Source: a virus (taxonomy: Duplodnaviria; Caudoviricetes). From it: 28,918 bases of DNA. This document shows, in pieces, positions 897 through 27,706 of the stretch (positions are counted from its first letter, which is position 1; each line of letters starts with the position of its first letter). The stretch covers positions 1-28,918 of the IMG/VR virus record IMGVR_UViG_3300049731_000043, one strand, 5' to 3'. Made by a program: the position numbers and the translations under genes. Below the pieces are notes generated by a model. It worked only from the letters and a program-made list of their open reading frames with translations. It was not told where the DNA came from and searched no databases.

Positions 897-1153
897 CGCT
901 ATGCGGAGCCGACGAGAAGCGCTGCGCGCCGACGCGGGTGCACCGCGCGATGCGAACGCCCGACGGCGGCATTCTCACCTTGGAGCCCATTGCAGCCTTT
1001 TGTGAACGCTGCGGCCGATACCGCCGCAAGAAATTGGCGAAGCGCCGCGCGCCAGCGCTCGCCATGTTCAAACCAAACCGGCGCAAGAAGGACAGCTACC
1101 ATGGCAAGAAAGCTAAAGCCCGAGGCGGGCGATACTCACACGGAAGTGCATGA
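884..1153 (+). CDS. small basic hypothetical protein with CxxC
   Basis: GGGGA upstream of ATG 884; CERC motif; overlaps both neighbours (53 nt with the next gene). Confidence 0.35.
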   Translation: METLALCGADEKRCAPTRVHRAMRTPDGGILTLEPIAAFCERCGRYRRKKLAKRRAPALAMFKPNRRKKDSYHGKKAKARGGRYSHGSA

Positions 1154-1985
1154 GATCGCCACGAGCATGCTCGGGGTCTACCTCCTCGGCATCACACCGC
1201 TGGTGCCGCATGCAATGTCGTTCAAGAGCAAGGGACAGTTGCTCTATCCGGCGCCCGCGAAGAATCGAGCGGAGCGGGAGACCTCGCTCAAGCACGATCC
1301 GTTCGAGGAATTCCGCGAGGCGGCGTATCGCTTTCGCGATAAGGACAAGCAGCCGACGCGGCTCTATATGCCCGCCGGTTCTTTCCACGCCGCCATGGCG
1401 TCGGCCGCACTCGATATGGTCGGCGTCAAGAAGTCTCAGATCGGTCGGCTCACCAGCGTGAGCGGCGAGAGGATCGCGGACAAAATCCCGATATTCGGCA
1501 CGCCGCAAATTTGGTGCGTCTCGGTGCGCTCAAGCGACATGGCCCGCACGCCGGACATTCGGACGCTTCCGATCCTCCCGCGCTGGTGCTGCTTCATCAA
1601 CGTGACGCACATCGGCTCGCTGATCTCCGAGCGCTCGATCATGAACCTCCTCGGCGCCGCCGGAGAGATCGTCGGCGTCGGCGACGGGCGACCGGAGAAA
1701 GGCAAGCTTAACAACGGCAAGTTCCGCGTGGTCGATGCCAAGCACCCAATGGTGCAGTCGCTCATGAGAAGCGAAGCCACCAAGGCGCAGGACGCCGGGC
1801 TCGCCTCGCCGGTCTACTACGACGCCGAGACGGAAGCCTTGCTTGAGTGGTTCTCGTCCGAGCGGACCAGCCGCCACGCCAAGCAACCGCACGCGCTCAA
1901 GGCCAGCAAGTCTCGGGGCACGCCGCGAGGCAAGCCGCGCGGCAAGGGCAACGGCGCCGAGGCAGGCGAAGGCGCGCACACCTAA
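1101..1985 (+). CDS. stand-alone Cas7/RAMP-fold-like protein (candidate Vipr-like RNA-guided effector)
   Basis: AAGGA RBS, ATG 1101, 294 aa. RAMP-like motif order: GITPLVPH (strand 1), LYMPAGSFHAAM (P..S.K.A-type helix), and C-terminal Gly-rich loop AGEIVGVGDGRPEKGKLNNGKF. No cas1/cas2/cas5/cas6 in the window. Fold assignment is by motif recognition only. Confidence 0.75.
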   Translation: MARKLKPEAGDTHTEVHEIATSMLGVYLLGITPLVPHAMSFKSKGQLLYPAPAKNRAERETSLKHDPFEEFREAAYRFRDKDKQPTRLYMPAGSFHAAMASAALDMVGVKKSQIGRLTSVSGERIADKIPIFGTPQIWCVSVRSSDMARTPDIRTLPILPRWCCFINVTHIGSLISERSIMNLLGAAGEIVGVGDGRPEKGKLNNGKFRVVDAKHPMVQSLMRSEATKAQDAGLASPVYYDAETEALLEWFSSERTSRHAKQPHALKASKSRGTPRGKPRGKGNGAEAGEGAHT

Positions 1986-2068: not shown

Positions 2069-2548
2069 ATGTCCACTATGAAGACGAAGGTGAAGGTTTT
2101 AAGGCAAATGTTCCGCAACGGCCGGGCGACCGCCGAGCAATTGGTGCGAGAGGCTTCAAAGAAAAGCCACGAGATGCACGACGACTTCGAGTGGGACGAC
2201 CGCAAGGCCGGGCACGCTTATCGAGTCGACCAAGCGCGCAAAATTATCTCGTCGGTCGAGATCATTCTCACCCAGTCGACCAAGGTCATTCGCACCGTTG
2301 CCTATGTGCGCGACCCTTCATGCGCTCCGAAGCAGCAAGGCTATATCTCGGTCGACAAATTAAAGTCGGAGCGAGCGCTCGCTGGTGAGGCGCTCGAAAA
2401 TGAACTCGACCGAGTCATCGCTTGCTATGAGCGCGCCAGCGCCTTTGCTGACGCGCTCGATCTCCGCTCGCAATTCGACGCCGTGCTGCTCTCGGCGGTC
2501 GATCTCCGCTCGCTGATAAAGCGCAAGCGAAAGGTCACGCCGGAATAA
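2069..2548 (+). CDS. conserved phage protein, probable partner of the RAMP-like protein
   Basis: GGAGGT RBS, ATG 2069, 159 aa; motif HDDFEWDDRKAGHAYRVDQARKII matches a recurrent phage family (H..FEWDD..A...YR..QAR..I); lies directly between the RAMP-like gene and the array. Confidence 0.8.
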   Translation: MSTMKTKVKVLRQMFRNGRATAEQLVREASKKSHEMHDDFEWDDRKAGHAYRVDQARKIISSVEIILTQSTKVIRTVAYVRDPSCAPKQQGYISVDKLKSERALAGEALENELDRVIACYERASAFADALDLRSQFDAVLLSAVDLRSLIKRKRKVTPE

Positions 2549-2582: not shown

Positions 2583-3946
2583 AACCAACGCGACTGGTCA
2601 GGACAAGCCAAGCCCGGCTTGGCCGCGTCAAGTCAAGCCAAGCCCAACAAGTCGGGCCGAGCCACGCACGCCCCGTCAAGTCGCGCCACGCCTAACATGC
2701 CCGGTCGCGCCGCGCCGAGCCTTGCCCCGTCTCGTCCCGTCGAGCCAAGTCGTGTCTTGCCGAGCCTCGACTAACGCGTCCGGACTTGCCCAGCCATGTA
2801 GCGTCGCGCCCAGCCGGGCCTTGCCTTGCCACGCCCATCGAGCCGCGCTCCGTCCGGCCGTGCCCTGTCGCGCCAAGCCGAGCCATGTCGCGCCCAACGC
2901 GTCGAGTAGAGCCGTGCCGGGCCGTCGCCGGGAAAAGCCTCGCGATGCCGTGCCGTGCCCAGCCATGCCGAGCCTCGACCGACGAAGCCTTGCCCAGCCT
3001 TGTCATGCTTTGCCGTGTCAGGTTGCGCCATGCCATGCCTCGACCAACGGGTCCGGCCGCGCCATGCTAGGCCGCGCCAAGCCGAGTCCGGACCAACGCG
3101 CTTTGCCAAGTCAGGACGAGTCCGGTCTAGCCTTGCCGGGCCTTGTCAAACGAGCCGACCCGTGTGGAGCCGGGTCAGGGCACGACGAGTGGAGCCATGC
3201 CGTGTCCAACGAGTCCGGTCCCGTCTGGCCGCGCTCTTGCTTGTGCCGAGCCATGCCAAGCCCTGTCGCGTCCAACGAGTCGGGCCGGGCCTTGCATGTT
3301 CGCGCCAAGCCAAGCCCCGCCATGTCATGCCCAACGAGTCTTGCCGTGCCAAGCCGCGCCGCGTCCGGCCCTGCCCCGGGCCGCCCGTACCAACGCGCCG
3401 TGCCTCGCCCAGCCGCGAGGAGTGAAGCCGAGGCCAGCCGCGTCCAACAAGCCGCGCCCTGTCGAGCCGTGCCACGCGGTCCCGAGTCTAGTCCTGACCA
3501 ACGCGCCAAGCCAAGCCAAGCCTCGCCTCGCGCTGTCTTGACCAACAAGCCACGCCGGGCCAAGCCGCGCCGAGCGACGCCCGGCCGGGCCGCGCCTAGA
3601 CCAACGAGCCGAGCGACGCCCCGTCAGGTCGTGCCCTGTGAAGTCCCGCCAAGCCGGGCCGAGCCTCGCCAAGACCAACATGCGGTGCCGTGCGGTGCCC
3701 AGCCGCGCCACGTCTTGCCCGGCCGAGCCGGGACCACCGTGCCGCGTCCCGCTGTGCCGCGCCCCGCCGTGTCCAACAAGACCCGCGAAGCCAAGACAAG
3801 CTGTGCGGAGCCGAGCCTTGTCATGCCATGTCCAACGAGCCTCGCGATGCGATGCCACGCGAAGCCTTGCCGAGTCCCGCCTTGCCCAACATGCAATGTC
3901 GAGACAAGCCGTGCGGAGCCGAGCCTAGTCCTGTCCTGTCCAACGC
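2583..3946. repeat. pentamer-code array 1: 23 units, each a CCAAC delimiter plus (NN-GYC)n
   Basis: 24 CCAAC-like delimiters at 2585, 2644, 2692, 2771, 2835, 2894, 2979, 3044, 3093, 3147, 3206, 3272, 3331, 3390, 3444, 3498, 3542, 3601, 3675, 3734, 3773, 3832, 3886, 3940; 19 of 23 spacings equal 5n+4 (39-79 nt); 5-nt periodic GCC/GTC triplets with variable dinucleotides. Confidence 0.92.
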
Positions 3947-3971
3947 GCCTATCAACCAGTGGAGAATTAAA

Positions 3972-4214
3972 ATGTCAGACGATATCGAGAAGAAGTGGAC
4001 GAAGGTCGCCAGCGACTTGCTACTCAACCGCAAGATCGTCGGCGTCAAATACATCAGTAAAAGTGAAGCGAAGTCCCTCGGCTGGTACGGGCGCTCGCTC
4101 TCGATCACACTCGACAGCGGCTTGGTCGTGTATGCGTCGCAAGACGACGAGGGCAATGGTCCCGGCGCTCTATTCACCACCGCAGAGAAGGCTAGCGTTC
4201 TGCCGGTGCTGTGA
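3972..4214 (+). CDS. small conserved phage protein inserted between the two arrays
   Basis: GGAG RBS, ATG 3972, 80 aa, motif SQDDEGNGPGALF; AT-richer and non-repetitive compared with its flanks. Confidence 0.85.
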   Translation: MSDDIEKKWTKVASDLLLNRKIVGVKYISKSEAKSLGWYGRSLSITLDSGLVVYASQDDEGNGPGALFTTAEKASVLPVL

Positions 4215-4695
4215 CCAACAAGACCCGCGAAGCCACGCCAAGCCGGGCCGAGCCAAGACCAACGCGCCATGCCAAGCCGCGCGATGTCCGGTCGTGCAAT
4301 GCCGGGCCAAGCCCTGCCTCTTCCAACGGGCCGAGCCGCGCCGAGCCGAGTTGGTTGCGCCATGCCGCGTCAAGCCCAACGTGCCTGCCTTGCCGGGCCT
4401 CGACCGGTCAAGTCACGCCCAGCCGGGACCAACAGGTTGCGCCGTGCCCCGTCTCGTCCCGTCGAGCCAAGTCCAACATGCCCCGCCGTGCCCGGTTAAG
4501 CCCCGTCGGGCAACGCCCAGCCGAGCCTTGCCGTGCCCGGCCCAACGTGCCGCGTCCGGCCATGCCAAGTCAGGTCGCAGCCGAGCCCGGCCCAACTTGC
4601 CGTGCCACGCCTTGCCCGGCCGAGCCCTGTCAAGACCAACGGCGCCGGGCCGTGCCCTGTCATGCCCTGCCCTGCCGAGACGCGTCAGGACCGCC
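4213..4695. repeat. pentamer-code array 2: about 9 units, same grammar as array 1
   Basis: CCAAC at 4215, 4259, 4323, 4376, 4429, 4473, 4542, 4592, 4636; GCC/GTC-NN periodicity; ends just before ATG 4697. Confidence 0.9.
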
Positions 4696-4696
4696 A

Positions 4697-5080
4697 ATGT
4701 CGAGAAAGCGAAAGTATGTCCGCATGCCCGAGCGGCTCGCCGCCGCTCTCGCATGCTTGCTCACGCAAGAGGAGCGCGACGCGCTTCGAGCGAGGAGAGC
4801 GCCAGCACGCGAAGTGCTCGCGCTTTTCACCTTCGATCACATCGCGCTCCATGCGTGGGGCGGATCGGATCGCTGGCACAACCTCGATCCAAAGCGCCGC
4901 GGTCTCGCGCTCAAGAAAAAAGACGCGGCCGATACCAGCCGCGCATTCAAAGCAAAGCGCATCGAAGAAAAGTGGAGTGCGTTCACCCGCGCAATGGCGC
5001 GCGGGAAAAAACCCAAACGAAAGGACAGCCAATGGCACCGCAACAAGCGCCGCCCGAATACGCCGACGAAATACATCTAG
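4697..5080 (+). CDS. HNH endonuclease-like protein (possibly degenerate)
   Basis: 127 aa from ATG 4697; FDHIALHAWGGSDRWHNL matches the first half of the HNH motif; the usual downstream CxxCH is absent; basic C-terminus. Confidence 0.65.
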   Translation: MSRKRKYVRMPERLAAALACLLTQEERDALRARRAPAREVLALFTFDHIALHAWGGSDRWHNLDPKRRGLALKKKDAADTSRAFKAKRIEEKWSAFTRAMARGKKPKRKDSQWHRNKRRPNTPTKYI

Positions 5081-22283: not shown

Positions 22284-23090
22284 TCACCATAGCAACCGGA
22301 AAAGCGTTCCGTCGACTAGCTCGGTTTCGTTATACTGCGAATAGGCCAGCGAGCGAAGCCAAGCGTCGCGGTCAGGATATACCGGAGACTCGATCTTTGT
22401 GAAATCGGTTAGGCCCATAGGCGCGGCGGCGCTTTGCTTGTCCACGAAAACCGGGACACCGAACACGACCGCCTCGACCGCCGCAATGCTCCCGTGCGTC
22501 ACCAGCGCGAACGCGCCAGCAAGGTCGCGGTCCAGAGGTATTGTGCTCTCCTTCGGCCGGATGCGAATCGGCCGGTCGGTATATCGCCTTAGCTCCTCGG
22601 CCACGCGCGCCGACCATTCGCGATCCGCGAAGAGGTCCCAGTAATCCGGCCCGGTGTCCGCGATGACGATCTCGCGCCCGCCCTTGCGCCAGCGCACCAC
22701 ATGGCCTTCGAGCCGGAGCGCTTTCCAGCGGTCGTCCGAATACTCGCGGACCTCCTTCATTTGCGGAGCATTGATCGTCCAGCGGTAATAGCCGCCGTTG
22801 TATCCTTGCGGGAGCCATGTCGCGAACACGCGCCGGAGATAGCCTCGGTCCCAAAAAATGAACGGCCGCCCCTCGCTCGGCCATTCGTGCACCAGCTTGC
22901 GAAAGCGCGGCGAGCAACCAATGATCGGCACCGCATGGCGCGGCAAGCGATAGACCGCATCGAAGTCATGCTTGAGCACGTCGCCGCCCTGCGCAACGAT
23001 CCGCTCCGCGATGCGATCAAACAAATACTTTTTAAACTTCGCCAAGCCGGGCGGATAGAACATCACCGTATTCTTCGGCTCTATCGCCAA
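22284..23090 (-). CDS. GT-B-like glycosyltransferase (capsule-synthesis-like)
   Basis: WDRGY, IRIRPK, LVTHGSIAAVEAVVFGVPVF; start uncertain (TTG 23090 or ATG 23063). Confidence 0.7.
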   Translation of the reverse strand: MAIEPKNTVMFYPPGLAKFKKYLFDRIAERIVAQGGDVLKHDFDAVYRLPRHAVPIIGCSPRFRKLVHEWPSEGRPFIFWDRGYLRRVFATWLPQGYNGGYYRWTINAPQMKEVREYSDDRWKALRLEGHVVRWRKGGREIVIADTGPDYWDLFADREWSARVAEELRRYTDRPIRIRPKESTIPLDRDLAGAFALVTHGSIAAVEAVVFGVPVFVDKQSAAAPMGLTDFTKIESPVYPDRDAWLRSLAYSQYNETELVDGTLFRLLW

Positions 23091-23773
23091 TGGTTTTGCA
23101 CCCACGGTAGATGCTTGAAGGCGCGCGGCTTGCGCCAGCCGATGAAGGTTACCAAGCGCGCGTCGGCCGGGAGATCGAAGCCCTTCGGCCACCCCGGTTT
23201 CTGGAACGCATACACACCTTCGGTGCCCGCTTGCCAGCCCGGTGCGGCTTTCAGCTTATGCCACATCCAGCCTTGGTCGTCGGCGAACTCATGGCGCGGG
23301 ATATGCTCGACCGCCGCAAGCGAGAAGTCGTGCCATAGCTCCGGGTGCGCGCCCGGCTTGAGCATGAATAGCGCGCCGACAAACGGGCAAGGGTTCGCAG
23401 CGTTGGCGCCTTGCAGGATTTTGAAGGACACCCCGCGCGGAAAGAGCCCGTCGCAATTGTTAGTAAGGATGGTATCGAGATCGACATTCACCAGCCGGGT
23501 CGCCTCGCTCTCGATCTCCTTGGCGGTGCGCCAGATCACGCGCCGCTGAAAGTCCGGCTCGAATAGCCGGAGCCGGGCAAAGCAACCGACGCGGCGCGTG
23601 AGCCCCATATCCTCAATGTAGGCTGTCTCGATCTCGTCCGCGACGAACGTCCGATCCGTGAAGCACAGGAAGCGATGCGGCTCCTTCACATGCCGGTTGA
23701 GCGCCGAGCGCAAGCGGCGCACATCGCCAATGTCGTACTTCTCGCCCCACAGCCATGTCGAGAACGTCAGCAT
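23081..23773 (-). CDS. GT-A fold glycosyltransferase
   Basis: WGEKY, FLCFTD, RLRLF, DxD motif VDLD, DDQGW, GWRKP. Confidence 0.8.
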   Translation of the reverse strand: MLTFSTWLWGEKYDIGDVRRLRSALNRHVKEPHRFLCFTDRTFVADEIETAYIEDMGLTRRVGCFARLRLFEPDFQRRVIWRTAKEIESEATRLVNVDLDTILTNNCDGLFPRGVSFKILQGANAANPCPFVGALFMLKPGAHPELWHDFSLAAVEHIPRHEFADDQGWMWHKLKAAPGWQAGTEGVYAFQKPGWPKGFDLPADARLVTFIGWRKPRAFKHLPWVQNHWR

Positions 23774-23774
23774 T

Positions 23775-24419
23775 TCATTGTCCCTTCACCATCATAATTG
23801 CGGTGTAGTCGATCTTGTGCGCGGGCGGCCGGGCGCGATCCAAAAAGTAGTCGTCCACCGCTTTGCGCGCGCCTTCCCAGTGCCCGTAGTCATCGACAAT
23901 GAGAATGCCGCCCAGCACCAGCCGAGGGTAGAGCGCTTCGAGCTCCGCCTTGGTCGAGGCATGCCAGTCGGTGTCAAGCCGAAGGAGCGCTATGCGCTCG
24001 GGGAGGTTGGTCGCGACCTTGAGCGTCTCGCAAACGTCGCCGACCACGAAGCGGCAGAACTTCTCATCGAGCGTGCCGGTGCCACGCATGAATTTTTGCA
24101 CTTCATGCAAGGAGGCCGCCGCCCATGGCTTACCCTTCGCGAGTTTCTCTTGATAGTGATCTATCGCCCGCACGCCCTTCTTCTTGACATCGAGTTCGGT
24201 CGGCTCGGTCATGCCGGTGAAAGTATCGTAGAGCCAGCACAGCCGCATGGGCGCGAGCATGCGCGCGAGCATGATATTCCCGCCGCGCCAGACGCCGCAC
24301 TCGACAATGTCGCCCATGATGCCGTCGCGCTCGATGCGCTTGACCGACTCGGCCATGGCGAGGAGGCGCTCGCGTGAGGATTTGCTGTAGCGCGCGGCGG
24401 TCGCGATCAATTCCTCCAC
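23775..24419 (-). CDS. TylF/MycF/NovP-family sugar O-methyltransferase
   Basis: GDIVECGVWRGG, YDTFTGM, LLRLDTDWHAST, IVDDYGHWEGARKAVDDY. Confidence 0.92.
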   Translation of the reverse strand: MEELIATAARYSKSSRERLLAMAESVKRIERDGIMGDIVECGVWRGGNIMLARMLAPMRLCWLYDTFTGMTEPTELDVKKKGVRAIDHYQEKLAKGKPWAAASLHEVQKFMRGTGTLDEKFCRFVVGDVCETLKVATNLPERIALLRLDTDWHASTKAELEALYPRLVLGGILIVDDYGHWEGARKAVDDYFLDRARPPAHKIDYTAIMMVKGQ

Positions 24420-24952
24420 AGCACACCTATCCCATTGTCGCGCGCTTCAAGCCTGATCTCCTCGTGCCGGTAGTCGATCTTGATGGCTTCCCAAAATTGC
24501 GGGACATCTATCGAAGCCTTGCCCGGCCTCGGCCCTTTCCATGAGATGTCGTGGAAGGCCACGATCTTTCCCATCGGCCCATAGTTCGCCCAGTCCTTCA
24601 TAACGAACGGCAGCAAATGGTTGCCGTCAATGAACACGCAGTCGTAGGGACCATGCGCGCGCACGCGCTCGACCACTTCCGCGTCGGTGCTATCACCGAG
24701 CACTAGGCGCGCCTCGTGCCCTCCCGCTTGCAGGAATTGCACGCAGCTTTTGAGGCTCGCAATAGAGTCGCCGACCGGGAGGTCGACCGCCACCAGCTTG
24801 CTGCCCGGCGGCAAGGCAAGCGAGACGCGATAGAGCGAGCCGCCGAACTTGCTCCCGATCTCTAGGTAGCTCCTGACCTCCTCCTTGCGGAGCAAGGCGC
24901 AAAAGCGCTCGTGCTCGATAGTGTTCTGTAGAGCCTTCGGCTGCTCGCTCAT
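24407..24952 (-). CDS. class I SAM-dependent methyltransferase (Methyltransf_24-like)
   Basis: YLEIGSKFGGS, VAVD, GDS, YDCVFIDGNH, VAFHD. Confidence 0.88.
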   Translation of the reverse strand: MSEQPKALQNTIEHERFCALLRKEEVRSYLEIGSKFGGSLYRVSLALPPGSKLVAVDLPVGDSIASLKSCVQFLQAGGHEARLVLGDSTDAEVVERVRAHGPYDCVFIDGNHLLPFVMKDWANYGPMGKIVAFHDISWKGPRPGKASIDVPQFWEAIKIDYRHEEIRLEARDNGIGVLWRN

Positions 24953-25263
24953 AACACCGCCCCGACCGACAACAGTCGTTCGCAGCGCTTTAGCGCCGCA
25001 CCGAAAGTCCAGTCCTCCTCGGGCATGTCGTTGCCCGCCGCCACCAAGTCGAAGCCGGGCGGCAAACGGAATTCGCGCCCATCGGCGAGGACATAGCTAT
25101 TGCCGACAAAAGATACCTTGAGCCCGAGCGCCTTGTAGAATTGCGCGTTCGCGCAATTGCAAGGGTCGGCGTAATTGTAGCGCTCGTCCCTCGGCTTGGT
25201 CTTGAGCCAGTCGCGCAGCTTCCTTAGCTCGTGCTGATTTTCCCAATTCGGGTTGTAGAGCAT
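24949..25263 (-). CDS. hypothetical protein
   Basis: GGAGGT RBS; TGATG coupling upstream and 4-nt overlap downstream; MLYNPNW..DWLKTKP..YNY..C.CA.AQF..WTFGAAL. Confidence 0.75.
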   Translation of the reverse strand: MLYNPNWENQHELRKLRDWLKTKPRDERYNYADPCNCANAQFYKALGLKVSFVGNSYVLADGREFRLPPGFDLVAAGNDMPEEDWTFGAALKRCERLLSVGAVL

Positions 25264-26069
25264 CACGTCACCTCCGCTGTTGGCTCGGCTTGCAAGAGCG
25301 CGAGCGCATGTTGCGTGACCTCGCTGACATGGATCGCGTTCAATTGTTGCGCGCAATGCGGGCACGCATAGAGGCTCCCGCATGCCGTGGTCGGCCCGCC
25401 CGTCAAATTGCGGTGCATGTCATAGCCGGTGAGCGAAGGCGGAATGAAGCCGCCGAAGATCACCACGCCCGGCACGCCGAGCGCCGCTGCCGCGTGATGC
25501 ATCCCGCCCTCGTGTCCAATGAACAGCGTCGCCCGCGCGAGGATGGAGGCCGCGTGCCGAAAGCTGGTCGACTCCTGATACTCGACACCGCGCAAGACAT
25601 GCCGCTGCTTATCAAAGCGCAATTGCACAACGCGATAGCCGAGGCGCCGCAACTCATCCGCGGTCGCTTGCCAGCGCTCGACCGGCCACTGCTTATTGAC
25701 CGCGACCGACTTCCAGTGCGGCACATTCGGCTCGATCAGCACGAAGCCGTGCGGCACTTGCTCGGCGCGCCTGATCTCGCCTTGGGAAAAAAAGAACTCG
25801 CCCGGCTTCGCCTTCCACGCCGGATTGAATAGCCAGTGCGTGGGCGTTTGCCCGATATGATAGCCGCGCCCGCCTTTGTAGTGCGGCACCCACTCGATAT
25901 CAGGCGCACCCTCGGAGCCCGGCCGCGCCACATTCGGGTTGCCCCTGAATATCTCTTCGCACCATGGCCCCCAAATAATCCGGCGACCATCACCGAAGGC
26001 GGCGCGCTTGCCTCTTGCGTGCATGCCCTTTGCGAGCCCGGTCGCCATGATCTCGTCGCCGTATCCCAT
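25263..26069 (-). CDS. GT9-family (heptosyltransferase-like) glycosyltransferase
   Basis: MGYGDEIMAT, KQWPVERW, LFIGHEGGMHHAAAALGVPGVVIFG, C-terminal Cys cluster. Confidence 0.88.
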   Translation of the reverse strand: MGYGDEIMATGLAKGMHARGKRAAFGDGRRIIWGPWCEEIFRGNPNVARPGSEGAPDIEWVPHYKGGRGYHIGQTPTHWLFNPAWKAKPGEFFFSQGEIRRAEQVPHGFVLIEPNVPHWKSVAVNKQWPVERWQATADELRRLGYRVVQLRFDKQRHVLRGVEYQESTSFRHAASILARATLFIGHEGGMHHAAAALGVPGVVIFGGFIPPSLTGYDMHRNLTGGPTTACGSLYACPHCAQQLNAIHVSEVTQHALALLQAEPTAEVT

Positions 26070-26256
26070 GGACCTTCACCTTGAGCCGGTCGATGTCAGC
26101 ACAGATCGCCTCATACTCGGCGGCCATGGCGGCGCGCTCCTCCGGCGAGAGCGCATCCCACATGGGCATCACAAGCTTTGCCGGGCGGCCGAGGAGCAAG
26201 CGCAAATGGCGCACGCGCTCAAGGCCGAGGTAGGCGGCTTCTTCCGGCGAGAGCAT
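25990..26256 (-). CDS. small hypothetical protein
   Basis: Fills the gap between two GT genes; internal LSPEE repeat; 80-nt overlap with the GT9 gene. Confidence 0.45.
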   Translation of the reverse strand: MLSPEEAAYLGLERVRHLRLLLGRPAKLVMPMWDALSPEERAAMAAEYEAICADIDRLKVKVHGIRRRDHGDRARKGHARKRQARRLR

Positions 26257-26258
26257 GG

Positions 26259-27056
26259 CTAGCGCCCATAGATGCCGAACATCGGATCGACGCGGAACGT
26301 CTCCGGCCCGCGCCCGACTGCGATGGCGTTCGCCAGCATGGTGTCGAATAGCTCGGTGATATCCTTGCGCGGATGCGGCCGGTCTGGCCCCGGCCACCAA
26401 TGCTCGCGGCCCTCGCGCTTCAAGCGCTCGCGGGCATACTTGTGGTTCGGTTGGGTCGGGATATCGGTGTAGTGCACATTCTTGACGTGCGCCTCAAAGA
26501 TGCTTTGACAGCCTTCGCCGTCGCGGCAATTCCAGTCGTTCTCGAAGTTCGCCATGACCGGCAGCACGTTGCGCCTGATCTGGCGGAAGGCTTGCGAGTC
26601 AGTGCGTAGATGGTTGATCGGCGGGAGCGCCAGTTGCATGCGCGCATTGTCGAAGAGCATGCAGCATGACACCACATCGCGCGGCGCGCCCTTGCCGAGA
26701 AAGGCCCGGCCGTCCGGGATGTCCTGATCGGCGAGCTCGGCGATATCGGCAAGCGGGATCTGATCGCAGTCCATATAGATCGCGCGGCCTTTGAAGTTGC
26801 AAAACTCCGGGATGCCCCAGCGCAAGGCGGAGAATGGCGTCGCCCACGTCTTCATATTCCACCCGGCATTCTTGTAGGGATAGCCGGAGTACCAAAACGA
26901 AGCCGGGTCGCGGCTCACCATCATGTAGGTGATATCGAGCGGGCGCGTCGCATGCTGGCGAAGCGCGAAGTCGATCACGGCTTGACACTCCAAATCCTCA
27001 TTGTTCGCAGGTGTGCCGACAAAGATGCGAATAGTGTTGTCGTCGTTGGTTGTCAT
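26259..27056 (-). CDS. GT-A fold (GT8-like) glycosyltransferase
   Basis: ATG 27056 in ATGA overlap; IRIFVG, TPFSALRW, GRAIYMDCD, WN, HYT. Confidence 0.85.
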   Translation of the reverse strand: MTTNDDNTIRIFVGTPANNEDLECQAVIDFALRQHATRPLDITYMMVSRDPASFWYSGYPYKNAGWNMKTWATPFSALRWGIPEFCNFKGRAIYMDCDQIPLADIAELADQDIPDGRAFLGKGAPRDVVSCCMLFDNARMQLALPPINHLRTDSQAFRQIRRNVLPVMANFENDWNCRDGEGCQSIFEAHVKNVHYTDIPTQPNHKYARERLKREGREHWWPGPDRPHPRKDITELFDTMLANAIAVGRGPETFRVDPMFGIYGR

Positions 27057-27706
27057 GCCAACCCCCATCGTTCGAGCGCCTCGGGCACGCTGATTTTCGG
27101 ATATGCGGTGACGGTGCTTATCGGGGAGCAATTGACCACATCGACACCCATGCGCGCAAGCTTCGGCGCGACGCCATTGAGCGCGCCGCGCCAGCGCATG
27201 AAATTTGATTCGTCCGGGTTGGTGCAAGGCGGGAGGTGCCGCCCGTGCCAATGCTGGCCGCCGAAGTCGAAGCCGATGAGGAGCACGCCGCTACAGCCCA
27301 TTTGCACCGCAAGGTTCACCATCTGAAAGCCGCCGTTGCCGCCAGAGCCGACCTTGCCGAACTTCTCGGTGAGGATGTCGTCGCTTTTCGGCACGACCTC
27401 GATGCCGACGATCTCGGGCCAATAGGTCGTTGCCAGCACGTCTTGCGATATCCTCACGCCGCCGAAATCCGTCGCACCGCGATAGAGCAGCCACCAATTG
27501 TAGTCGCACGCATAGAGCATGTCGGCCCATGGGCAAAGGTGGACCGCATTGTTGATGGCGATCACATGGATGCGATCTCGCAACAGGGAGAGGTCAACTC
27601 CCTTCGCCGAGGCGCCGCTCCCCACCACCGCCACGCACTCTCCCGGCCAGCGCGGGAGATCATCTCTGCTTCGCCCGGTTTGTAACTCTAGTGCTTTGTC
27701 GAGCAT
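27053..27706 (-). CDS. DUF115/MptE-like (sialyltransferase-like fold) putative glycosyltransferase
   Basis: VAVVGSGAS, IAINNA, ADMLYACD..WW, GGNGGFQMVNLAVQMG..LLIGFD, VVNCS; start 27706 or 27748. Confidence 0.78.
   Translation of the reverse strand: MLDKALELQTGRSRDDLPRWPGECVAVVGSGASAKGVDLSLLRDRIHVIAINNAVHLCPWADMLYACDYNWWLLYRGATDFGGVRISQDVLATTYWPEIVGIEVVPKSDDILTEKFGKVGSGGNGGFQMVNLAVQMGCSGVLLIGFDFGGQHWHGRHLPPCTNPDESNFMRWRGALNGVAPKLARMGVDVVNCSPISTVTAYPKISVPEALERWGLA

Follow-up and report, generated by a model that had tools for sequence, protein, structure and literature searches.

VIPR systems, the closest described relatives of the locus reported here, have so far been presented as weapons between phages, or as host defenses once captured. 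They combine a phage-borne RAMP gene and one accessory gene with a pentamer array, and their NN dinucleotides are read with a one-base skip at the wobble position, features that our locus has in common with them; published VIPR guides lack self-targets at 80% or more (10.64898/2026.04.26.720920). In SUSP1, R138A or an altered GGY scaffold abolishes silencing, according to the accessible passages of two preprints (10.64898/2026.04.26.720920; 10.64898/2026.04.26.720927), and excerpts of the structure paper assign roles to the Vipr residues that contact the scaffold (10.64898/2026.04.26.720927). Natural targets named in the available parts of the published work are satellites, prophages, and other VIPRs (10.64898/2026.04.26.720920; 10.64898/2026.10.15.759431). 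Data S3 of the first of these, as far as its accessible text indicates, is a target list that could include defense genes (10.64898/2026.04.26.720920).

We analyzed a 28,918-nucleotide stretch of phage DNA (hereafter the window), IMG/VR record IMGVR_UViG_3300049731_000043. It encodes about 32 predicted wobble-skipping guides, and we consider it quite probable that its Vipr protein binds these and uses them to silence both rival-phage genes and the anti-phage genes of hosts. Judged from sequence comparison, the window VIPR is likely to be an RNA-programmed anti-defense weapon.

A phage VIPR locus with a staggered array

The region 2585–4690, together with the two genes upstream of it, is a phage VIPR locus, consisting of vipr (1101–1985), an accessory gene (2069–2548), and a staggered array (2585–4690; Table 1). 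The phage character of the window is evident from its tail, tape-measure, RecE, and RecT genes and from its source, a virus record. Genes resembling glycosyl- and methyltransferases by eye are also found among the virion genes (22284–27251). The contig is present in soil metagenome runs, all from one year and possibly from one campaign. Short stretches of vipr and the array are represented in metatranscriptome contigs from three soil runs, though these contigs may be DNA, and strand and processing are invisible in them. Promoter and terminator scans stayed at chance level.

Table 1. Coordinates of the features discussed in the text (positions in the window).
Feature	Position	Strand	Evidence
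vipr gene (294 codons) encoding a RAMP-fold protein, the predicted guide-RNA coat	1101..1985	+	Profile match to SUSP1 Vipr, structure model, Foldseek
Leu codon at the SUSP1 Arg138 position (thumb contact to second scaffold G)	1566..1568	+	Alignment to 36pp_D
Gly codon at the SUSP1 Trp178 position (G-loop stack on second G)	1686..1688	+	Alignment to 36pp_D
Likely vap accessory gene, 159 aa, function unassigned	2069..2548	+	Directly 3' of vipr; phrog_15946, E 3e-17
Guide array, part 1: G-C/T-C + NN pentamers	2585..3955	+	Units joined by scaffold-C-AAC, one-base phase slip
Predicted guide, first 9 dinucleotides matching a presumed helicase-like motif in phage genes	2894..2977	+	Partial match
Predicted guide against the DGG..ANNP stretch, conserved in CBASS phospholipase genes	3272..3330	+	Gap-1 matches, 401 genomes
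Predicted guide against capH of a CBASS locus, 19/20	3444..3497	+	Blind scan
Predicted guide against phage genes for Sak4-like ssDNA-annealing ATPases (L380, 22/22)	3542..3600	+	Viral pattern search
80-codon ORF inside the array, own ribosome-binding-like site	3972..4214	+	ORF list; period-5 repeat interrupted there
Guide array, part 2	4208..4690	+	Period-5 repeat, parse
Predicted guide against a small unnamed gene leading operons beside DNA methyltransferases and other defense genes, 22/24	4259..4322	+	Blind search

Vipr has 413 homologues. A profile built from 120 sequences found a single match in the PDB, the SUSP1 Vipr (36pp_D, E 6.7e-7, from thumb to G-loop). The structure model (pLDDT 87.3) has chains of type III Csm/Cmr and type VII CRISPR complexes as its top Foldseek matches (best E 1.5e-5). 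Distant homologues, annotated as hypothetical, also occur in Mycobacterium and Gordonia phages (records H1–H30). Pentamer arrays (at least 15 pentamers nearby) adjoin 131 of 171 distinct homologous proteins. These proteins derive from 200 fetched loci, which were the best 80 of 441, the best 80 of 443, all 40 of a third set, and 2 more; the 40 below that threshold, many of them on short contigs, were left out.

Look-alikes of the vap-like product are found in phages only and belong to no family. By eye, a similar gene adjoins vipr in loci L003 and L004. The order differs in these two relatives (L003:10820–11690 and L004:5535–5800), whose main array separates vipr from the accessory gene instead of following both. 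The ORF inside the array matched no family in Pfam, NCBIfam, or PHROGs, and a family scan of ORF 4697–5080 gave no match. A repeat search returned pentamers only and no CRISPR repeats, and no cas family was present among the neighboring genes scanned; the repeat-spacer array and several cas genes that characterize class 1 CRISPR-Cas are thus lacking from the window.

The array is a period-5 repeat: identity at lag 5 is 0.51 (2585–3950), versus about 0.25 at lags 1–4 and 6–9. It parses into 32 units of 7–16 repeats, compared with about 9–16 per guide in VIPR systems, and 24 of 30 unit spacings are of the form 5n+4. On the plus strand, the most frequent scaffolds are GCC (185 of 302 pentamers), GTC (62), GCG (15), and GAC (13). 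Some dinucleotide runs are common to 2692–2770 and 4429–4472, and others to 3773–3831 and 3886–3939, which suggests duplication or recombination within the array.

The variable dinucleotides (n = 333) comprise AA 44, GA 44, GC 39, GT 29, AT 27, TT 22, CG 20, GG 20, CC 19, AC 14, CT 14, TC 13, CA 10, AG 9, TA 5, and TG 4. This parse agrees with the hand tally of a first-pass annotation (GA and AA about 45 each, TC about 13, TA and TG about 4), which had proposed that the dinucleotides behave like codon positions 1 and 2. The excess of GA over its reverse complement TC noted there was confirmed (43 versus 13 among 324 dinucleotides in units of at least 5; p = 7e-5). With 7,507 codons from 28 window genes as reference, the sense codon 1-2 profile reached a log-likelihood of −857.6, compared with −898.3 for uniform and −902.4 for genome dinucleotide frequencies. 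It also beat the other five registers (−903.2 to −1017.2), leaving a margin of more than 40 log units. This best fit was still imperfect in a chi-square test (chi2 38.6, 15 df, p = 7e-4), mainly because of an excess of AA. Sense was favored over antisense by 26 of 30 units, and the protein-like strings decoded earlier from units 2835, 3147, and 3044 were all reproduced.

Scaffold variant and scaffold-contacting residues

The scaffold of the window array is G-C/T-C rather than GGY: read on the vipr strand, 3 of 301 pentamers carry G as their middle base. A canonical VIPR is marked by GGY on the guide strand, which is thus missing here. Note that published VIPR papers permit related consensus motifs, so the missing GGY excludes the canonical form only. 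Between residue 138 and the G-loop, Vipr aligns to 36pp_D without gaps. The residues that contact the first G (H17, D177) and the pyrimidine (R179) in SUSP1 Vipr, as given in the available part of the structure paper (10.64898/2026.04.26.720927), have unchanged equivalents here; the two that contact the second G are both replaced (Arg138 by Leu, Trp178 by Gly).

This change coincides with the scaffold. The middle-G fraction is at most 0.09 in 5 of 5 distinct Leu loci and at least 0.33 in 126 of 126 Arg loci. Seventeen Arg loci with Gly at the Trp178 position retain GGY, so the Trp-to-Gly change alone is insufficient for loss of the second G. Leu occupies the position in 102 of 120 aligned proteins, and the Leu proteins fall into a single clade (support 1.0); the association therefore represents one evolutionary event, not independent covariation. 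A scan for further viral contigs of the Leu clade gave only the same 5. On this comparison, the pairing of second-G loss with Arg138-to-Leu appears to go beyond published VIPR descriptions.

The same array could also be read from the other strand. GCC, at 185 of 302 scaffolds, has GGC as its reverse complement, and the sole promoter-like match of the scan is on the minus strand, though it points away from the array. Minus-strand guides with a canonical GGC scaffold would pair with coding strands, and no scaffold variant would exist. We consider this improbable, as the closest relatives contradict it. The other four Leu loci (L003, L004, L090, and L125), which have CCAAC-type joints (variants in L090), have a scaffold that is mainly GAC when read along the vipr strand, GTC when read along the other, and GGY in neither direction. 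The Arg that binds the second G is lost in exactly the Leu loci. In addition, the strand that carries vipr is the one with the sense-codon bias in 101 of 126 GGY (Arg) loci and in all 5 Leu loci, including that of the window. Because the Leu relatives have GGY on neither strand and the bias marks the vipr strand, we infer that the guide RNA corresponds to the plus strand. In one Arg-type locus (L174:9730–9870), a run of GCC precedes vipr and a run of GGC follows it; the array there may be divergent or inverted.

Predicted targets in phage and defense genes

Searches of large collections covered 9 of the 32 guides: four had gap-1 matches, four had nothing, and one had a partial match. Units 2692, 4473, 4259, and 2835 were chosen blind; 3272, 2894, and 3390 because their decoded strings looked like a known motif; 3444 following a local match in a blind scan; and 3542 after convergence with relatives. 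The genomes searched share an order or a family with G001 (Bradyrhizobium), a choice based on a guess at the host. Chance expectations use codon frequencies with one gene misframed, and a corrected composition test gives nearly the same result. The chance model is calibrated, as unit 3390 had 15 matches against 10.4 expected and unit 2835 had one (two for its controls) against 1.7 among 151 genomes.

Unit 3272 matched CBASS genes. It had 10 matches with at most two mismatches, spread over 10 of 401 genomes, three of them at 21/22, where 0.32 and 0.011 were expected; reversed controls had none in the same genomes. Nine of the ten lie in frame on the same peptide, with the third codon base skipped, and the remaining one is a chance hit. 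The targets include eight phospholipase genes located beside a nucleotide cyclase. Six of their products score above the NCBIfam cut-off as CBASS cGAMP-activated phospholipases, one falls just below it, and one is DS2-like.

A blind scan of all 32 guides against the nine unit-3272 loci (86.5 kb) gave a second CBASS match. Unit 3444 matched capH in G206, 2.7 kb from the phospholipase site, where 0.0013 such matches were expected for any guide. The gene was identified by PADLOC (E 4e-35) and adjoins a CapP-like peptidase gene. We take the matched stretch to encode a common helix-turn-helix motif; among 301 genomes unit 3444 matched two, the other match being in a metabolic-looking gene. CapP cleavage relieves CapH repression of CBASS, according to the accessible text of 10.1101/2022.04.27.489752. 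One might speculate that blocking the capH operon prevents CBASS induction.

Unit 4259 points to a gene family that has no name. Its 22/24 matches were found blind in viral contigs, and the first three were all viral. Among 401 genomes, 9 matches occurred in 8, against 0.90 expected; six of these represent one family of 76–89-residue genes, and three are unrelated. Neighbors of the gene encode DNA methyltransferases, Vsr, PDC-M33, a defense reverse transcriptase, and ThsA. Across 120 homologues, the first 11 codon boxes fit in 86 and the twelfth in none, and the first 11 dinucleotides matched 0 of 151 genomes from the bacterial family searched. A recurring unit of the small gene, an 825–841-aa protein, and a convergent gene is present in L240 (9876–13843), L239, L241, L242, and L244, and we regard it as a candidate unnamed defense system. 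In L240 the convergent gene is annotated as a DNA methyltransferase, and the 825–841-aa partner is without family. The 825-aa neighbor gave no family match; an Hsp90-like ATPase reading of it, which was set aside, comes from Atlas clusters in which 26 to 30% of members have that annotation.

Unit 3542 has a phage target. A search pattern with two relaxed positions gave an estimated 1,400 matching stretches in viral sequence. Among the 120 listed, the exact guide had one match at 22/22 (L380) and 46 at 21/22. All ten skipped positions vary freely across these 120 matched Sak4-like genes. The phage's own recombination genes are RecE/RecT, not Sak4, and the best self match of unit 3542 is 16/22. 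Across the contig, which may be a partial genome, self matches reached 13/16 (81%) for one short unit and at most 79% for the others. No guide matched Vipr homologues. The start of unit 2894, whose motif we presume to be helicase-like, was matched 18/18 in L260 and L272. Its best whole-unit match is 25/32 elsewhere; the unit matched 0 of 181 genomes, and none of the 22 viral matches to its first part extends.

Other VIPR arrays converge on the same sites, a result that does not depend on which databases were chosen. When window guides were compared with 1,224 tracts from relatives, 7 close matches were found, versus 1 and 0 for shuffled guides. Guides of L024, L032, and L189 cover the phospholipase site in sense and that of L046 in antisense, in the wobble register; three of the seven matches concern the Sak4 site. 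The converging loci are canonical GGY systems with Vipr proteins 32–56% identical, and defense targeting is therefore not tied to the scaffold variant.

Further guide sharing was observed among relatives. GGY guides of five loci (L013:4849, L068:4194, L073:3252, L127:854, and L046:13719) decode to one JAB-like motif, one of them antisense, and a similar motif occurs in the CBASS JAB gene of L288, a resemblance at motif level and not a close DNA match. Two distant arrays (L003:11100 and L046:13472) have a guide core in common in opposite orientations; the L003 guide had no target in 201 genomes. At least three guides in the L046 array are reverse complements of guides at other loci, where orientation is mostly sense.

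Other searches returned nothing beyond chance. No targets were found for 29 window units in 2.2 Mb of vipr-neighborhood loci (gaps 0–2 and shuffled), and 481 guides from relatives, scanned likewise over 2.2 Mb, were not enriched for gap-1 matches. In 648 kb of defense loci, 449 relatives' guides had 11 matches at gap 1, 10 at gap 0, 9 at gap 2, and 11 when shuffled, and 27 guides from the four other Leu loci had no target. Wider flanks of the matched loci (382 kb) and Sak4 loci (629 kb) yielded no further guide match. The core of unit 2692 had 0 viral matches, and that of unit 4473 had three (best 20/26), none beyond chance. The 15 matches of unit 3390 are scattered and near chance, so the metallo-hydrolase reading first considered for it was rejected.

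The first-pass annotation had proposed that guides match coding sequence two bases at a time and skip every third base, out of reach of synonymous escape. Four guides now have gap-1 matches with the skip on codon position 3, and among the Sak4-like matches of unit 3542 the skipped bases vary. The expected contrast with gaps 0 and 2, for which controls were confined to the fetched loci, holds for unit 3444 (19/20 at gap 1, 14 at gaps 0 and 2) but does not appear as a bulk gap-1 excess. Phage targets had been anticipated and were found in the Sak4-like genes, but CBASS and defense-linked genes were matched as well, never perfectly and at best at 21/22, 19/20, and 22/24 (units 3272, 3444, and 4259). 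Both the skip rule and the escape argument were already published for VIPR (10.64898/2026.04.26.720920; also the accessible part of 10.64898/2026.10.15.759431), so the inferred code is right but not new.

Could these matches be chance hits of codon-like composition on conserved motifs, and the array a degenerate pentamer minisatellite? Codon-like queries do exceed a reversed control by chance (15 versus 2 for unit 3390), and four tested guides lack matches. We give this explanation almost no credence given that period-5 arrays adjoin most of the distinct Vipr homologues, that guides of five VIPR loci address a single site, in both orientations, and that units 3272 and 4259 exceed expectation by 10 to 0.32 and 9 to 0.90.

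A more serious alternative is an ordinary VIPR aimed at rival phages and mobile elements only, with the CBASS and methyltransferase-linked targets carried by competing prophages or islands and not part of host immunity. CBASS can ride on prophages, which would blur the distinction between host and rival targets. The sole perfect match is to a phage gene (unit 3542), the first three unit-4259 matches are on viral contigs, and the natural targets in the available published text are satellites, prophages, and other VIPRs. We nevertheless hold this to be unlikely. The phospholipase and capH matches lie on contigs of bacterial genomes, of which three span 3.6–5.6 Mb, and the matched operons are annotated as CBASS or DS2. 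Silencing defense genes would also be anti-defense wherever they are located.

Proposed mechanism and comparison with known systems

Under the anti-defense reading, the array would be transcribed from the plus strand together with vipr and the transcript cut at the phase slips, giving guides of 7–16 repeats. Each guide would have the coding-strand sequence and pair with the template strand. By analogy with SUSP1, one Vipr per pentamer would bury the three scaffold bases, leaving NN to pair with DNA with a skip of one target base, and the filament, once bound, would block transcription without cutting (accessible passages of 10.64898/2026.04.26.720920; 10.64898/2026.04.26.720927). Targets here would be rival-phage recombination genes and host defense operons. 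The guides would lie on conserved-motif codons, so that synonymous change would give a target no escape. Loss of the Arg138 contact may have freed the middle scaffold base, giving rise to G-H-C guides.

More broadly, we lean toward the view that a large environmental VIPR lineage acts against bacterial innate immunity as a programmable silencer of multiple targets. Its targets would be CBASS phospholipases, CapH, JAB proteins, and methyltransferase-linked operons, at conserved-motif codons beyond synonymous escape, and one sub-clade would have its scaffold re-coded by a single Arg-to-Leu change. CBASS-aimed guides would add a third role for VIPR, the RNA-programmed transcriptional shutdown of host immunity, several systems together. 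If so, decoded arrays would map the defenses that phages meet, unnamed ones included, and unit 4259 already points to such a gene beside methyltransferases. Codon-box reading of arrays could thus be a cheap route to the genes that phages are selected to silence. Guides with the re-coded scaffold would be orthogonal to GGY systems and would resist being hijacked by decoy guides of the GGY type. The joint change of Arg138 and the second G offers a testable rule for scaffold reading by Vipr, and suggests an orthogonal gene-repression tool.

The anti-defense targets and the scaffold-residue pairing seem to extend published VIPR work. The word CBASS is absent from the available main text of three VIPR preprints (10.64898/2026.04.26.720920; 10.64898/2026.04.26.720927; 10.64898/2026.10.15.759431), and a literature search that included few subscription journals turned up no publication that describes VIPR guides aimed at CBASS or the Arg138 change. 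The COMPASS survey (10.64898/2026.10.21.760802) describes, in its accessible passages, 21 clusters with other scaffolds, including GAC/NN, beside Vipr-like folds, and the four related, mainly GAC, Leu loci resemble its GAC/NN arrays. Those passages contain no GCC/GTC scaffold, residue link, or targets; Fig. S10 of the survey may include the Leu clade.

Compared with SUSP1, the window has a G-C/T-C scaffold with Leu at 138 and Gly at 178, versus GGY, Arg138, and Trp178; a Vipr of 294 aa versus 202; and about 32 guides versus 4, without the 40-nt tail between guides. A staggered array with a one-base slip is also found in VIPR, according to the Fig. S18 legend of 10.64898/2026.04.26.720920. The excerpts available of the SUSP1 anti-satellite study list satellites, REP decoys, vipr genes, and other guides as targets, with guides on conserved-residue codons from which escape needs an amino-acid change, as appears to be the case in the window (10.64898/2026.10.15.759431). 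Unlike those of SUSP1 VIPR, the predicted window targets include CBASS and other defense-linked genes. The Cas7 backbones of Class 1 CRISPR systems (Csm3/Cmr) have the RAMP fold and an RNA-guided filament in common with the window system, whereas their pairing is contiguous and that predicted here is gapped, with two of every three bases paired.
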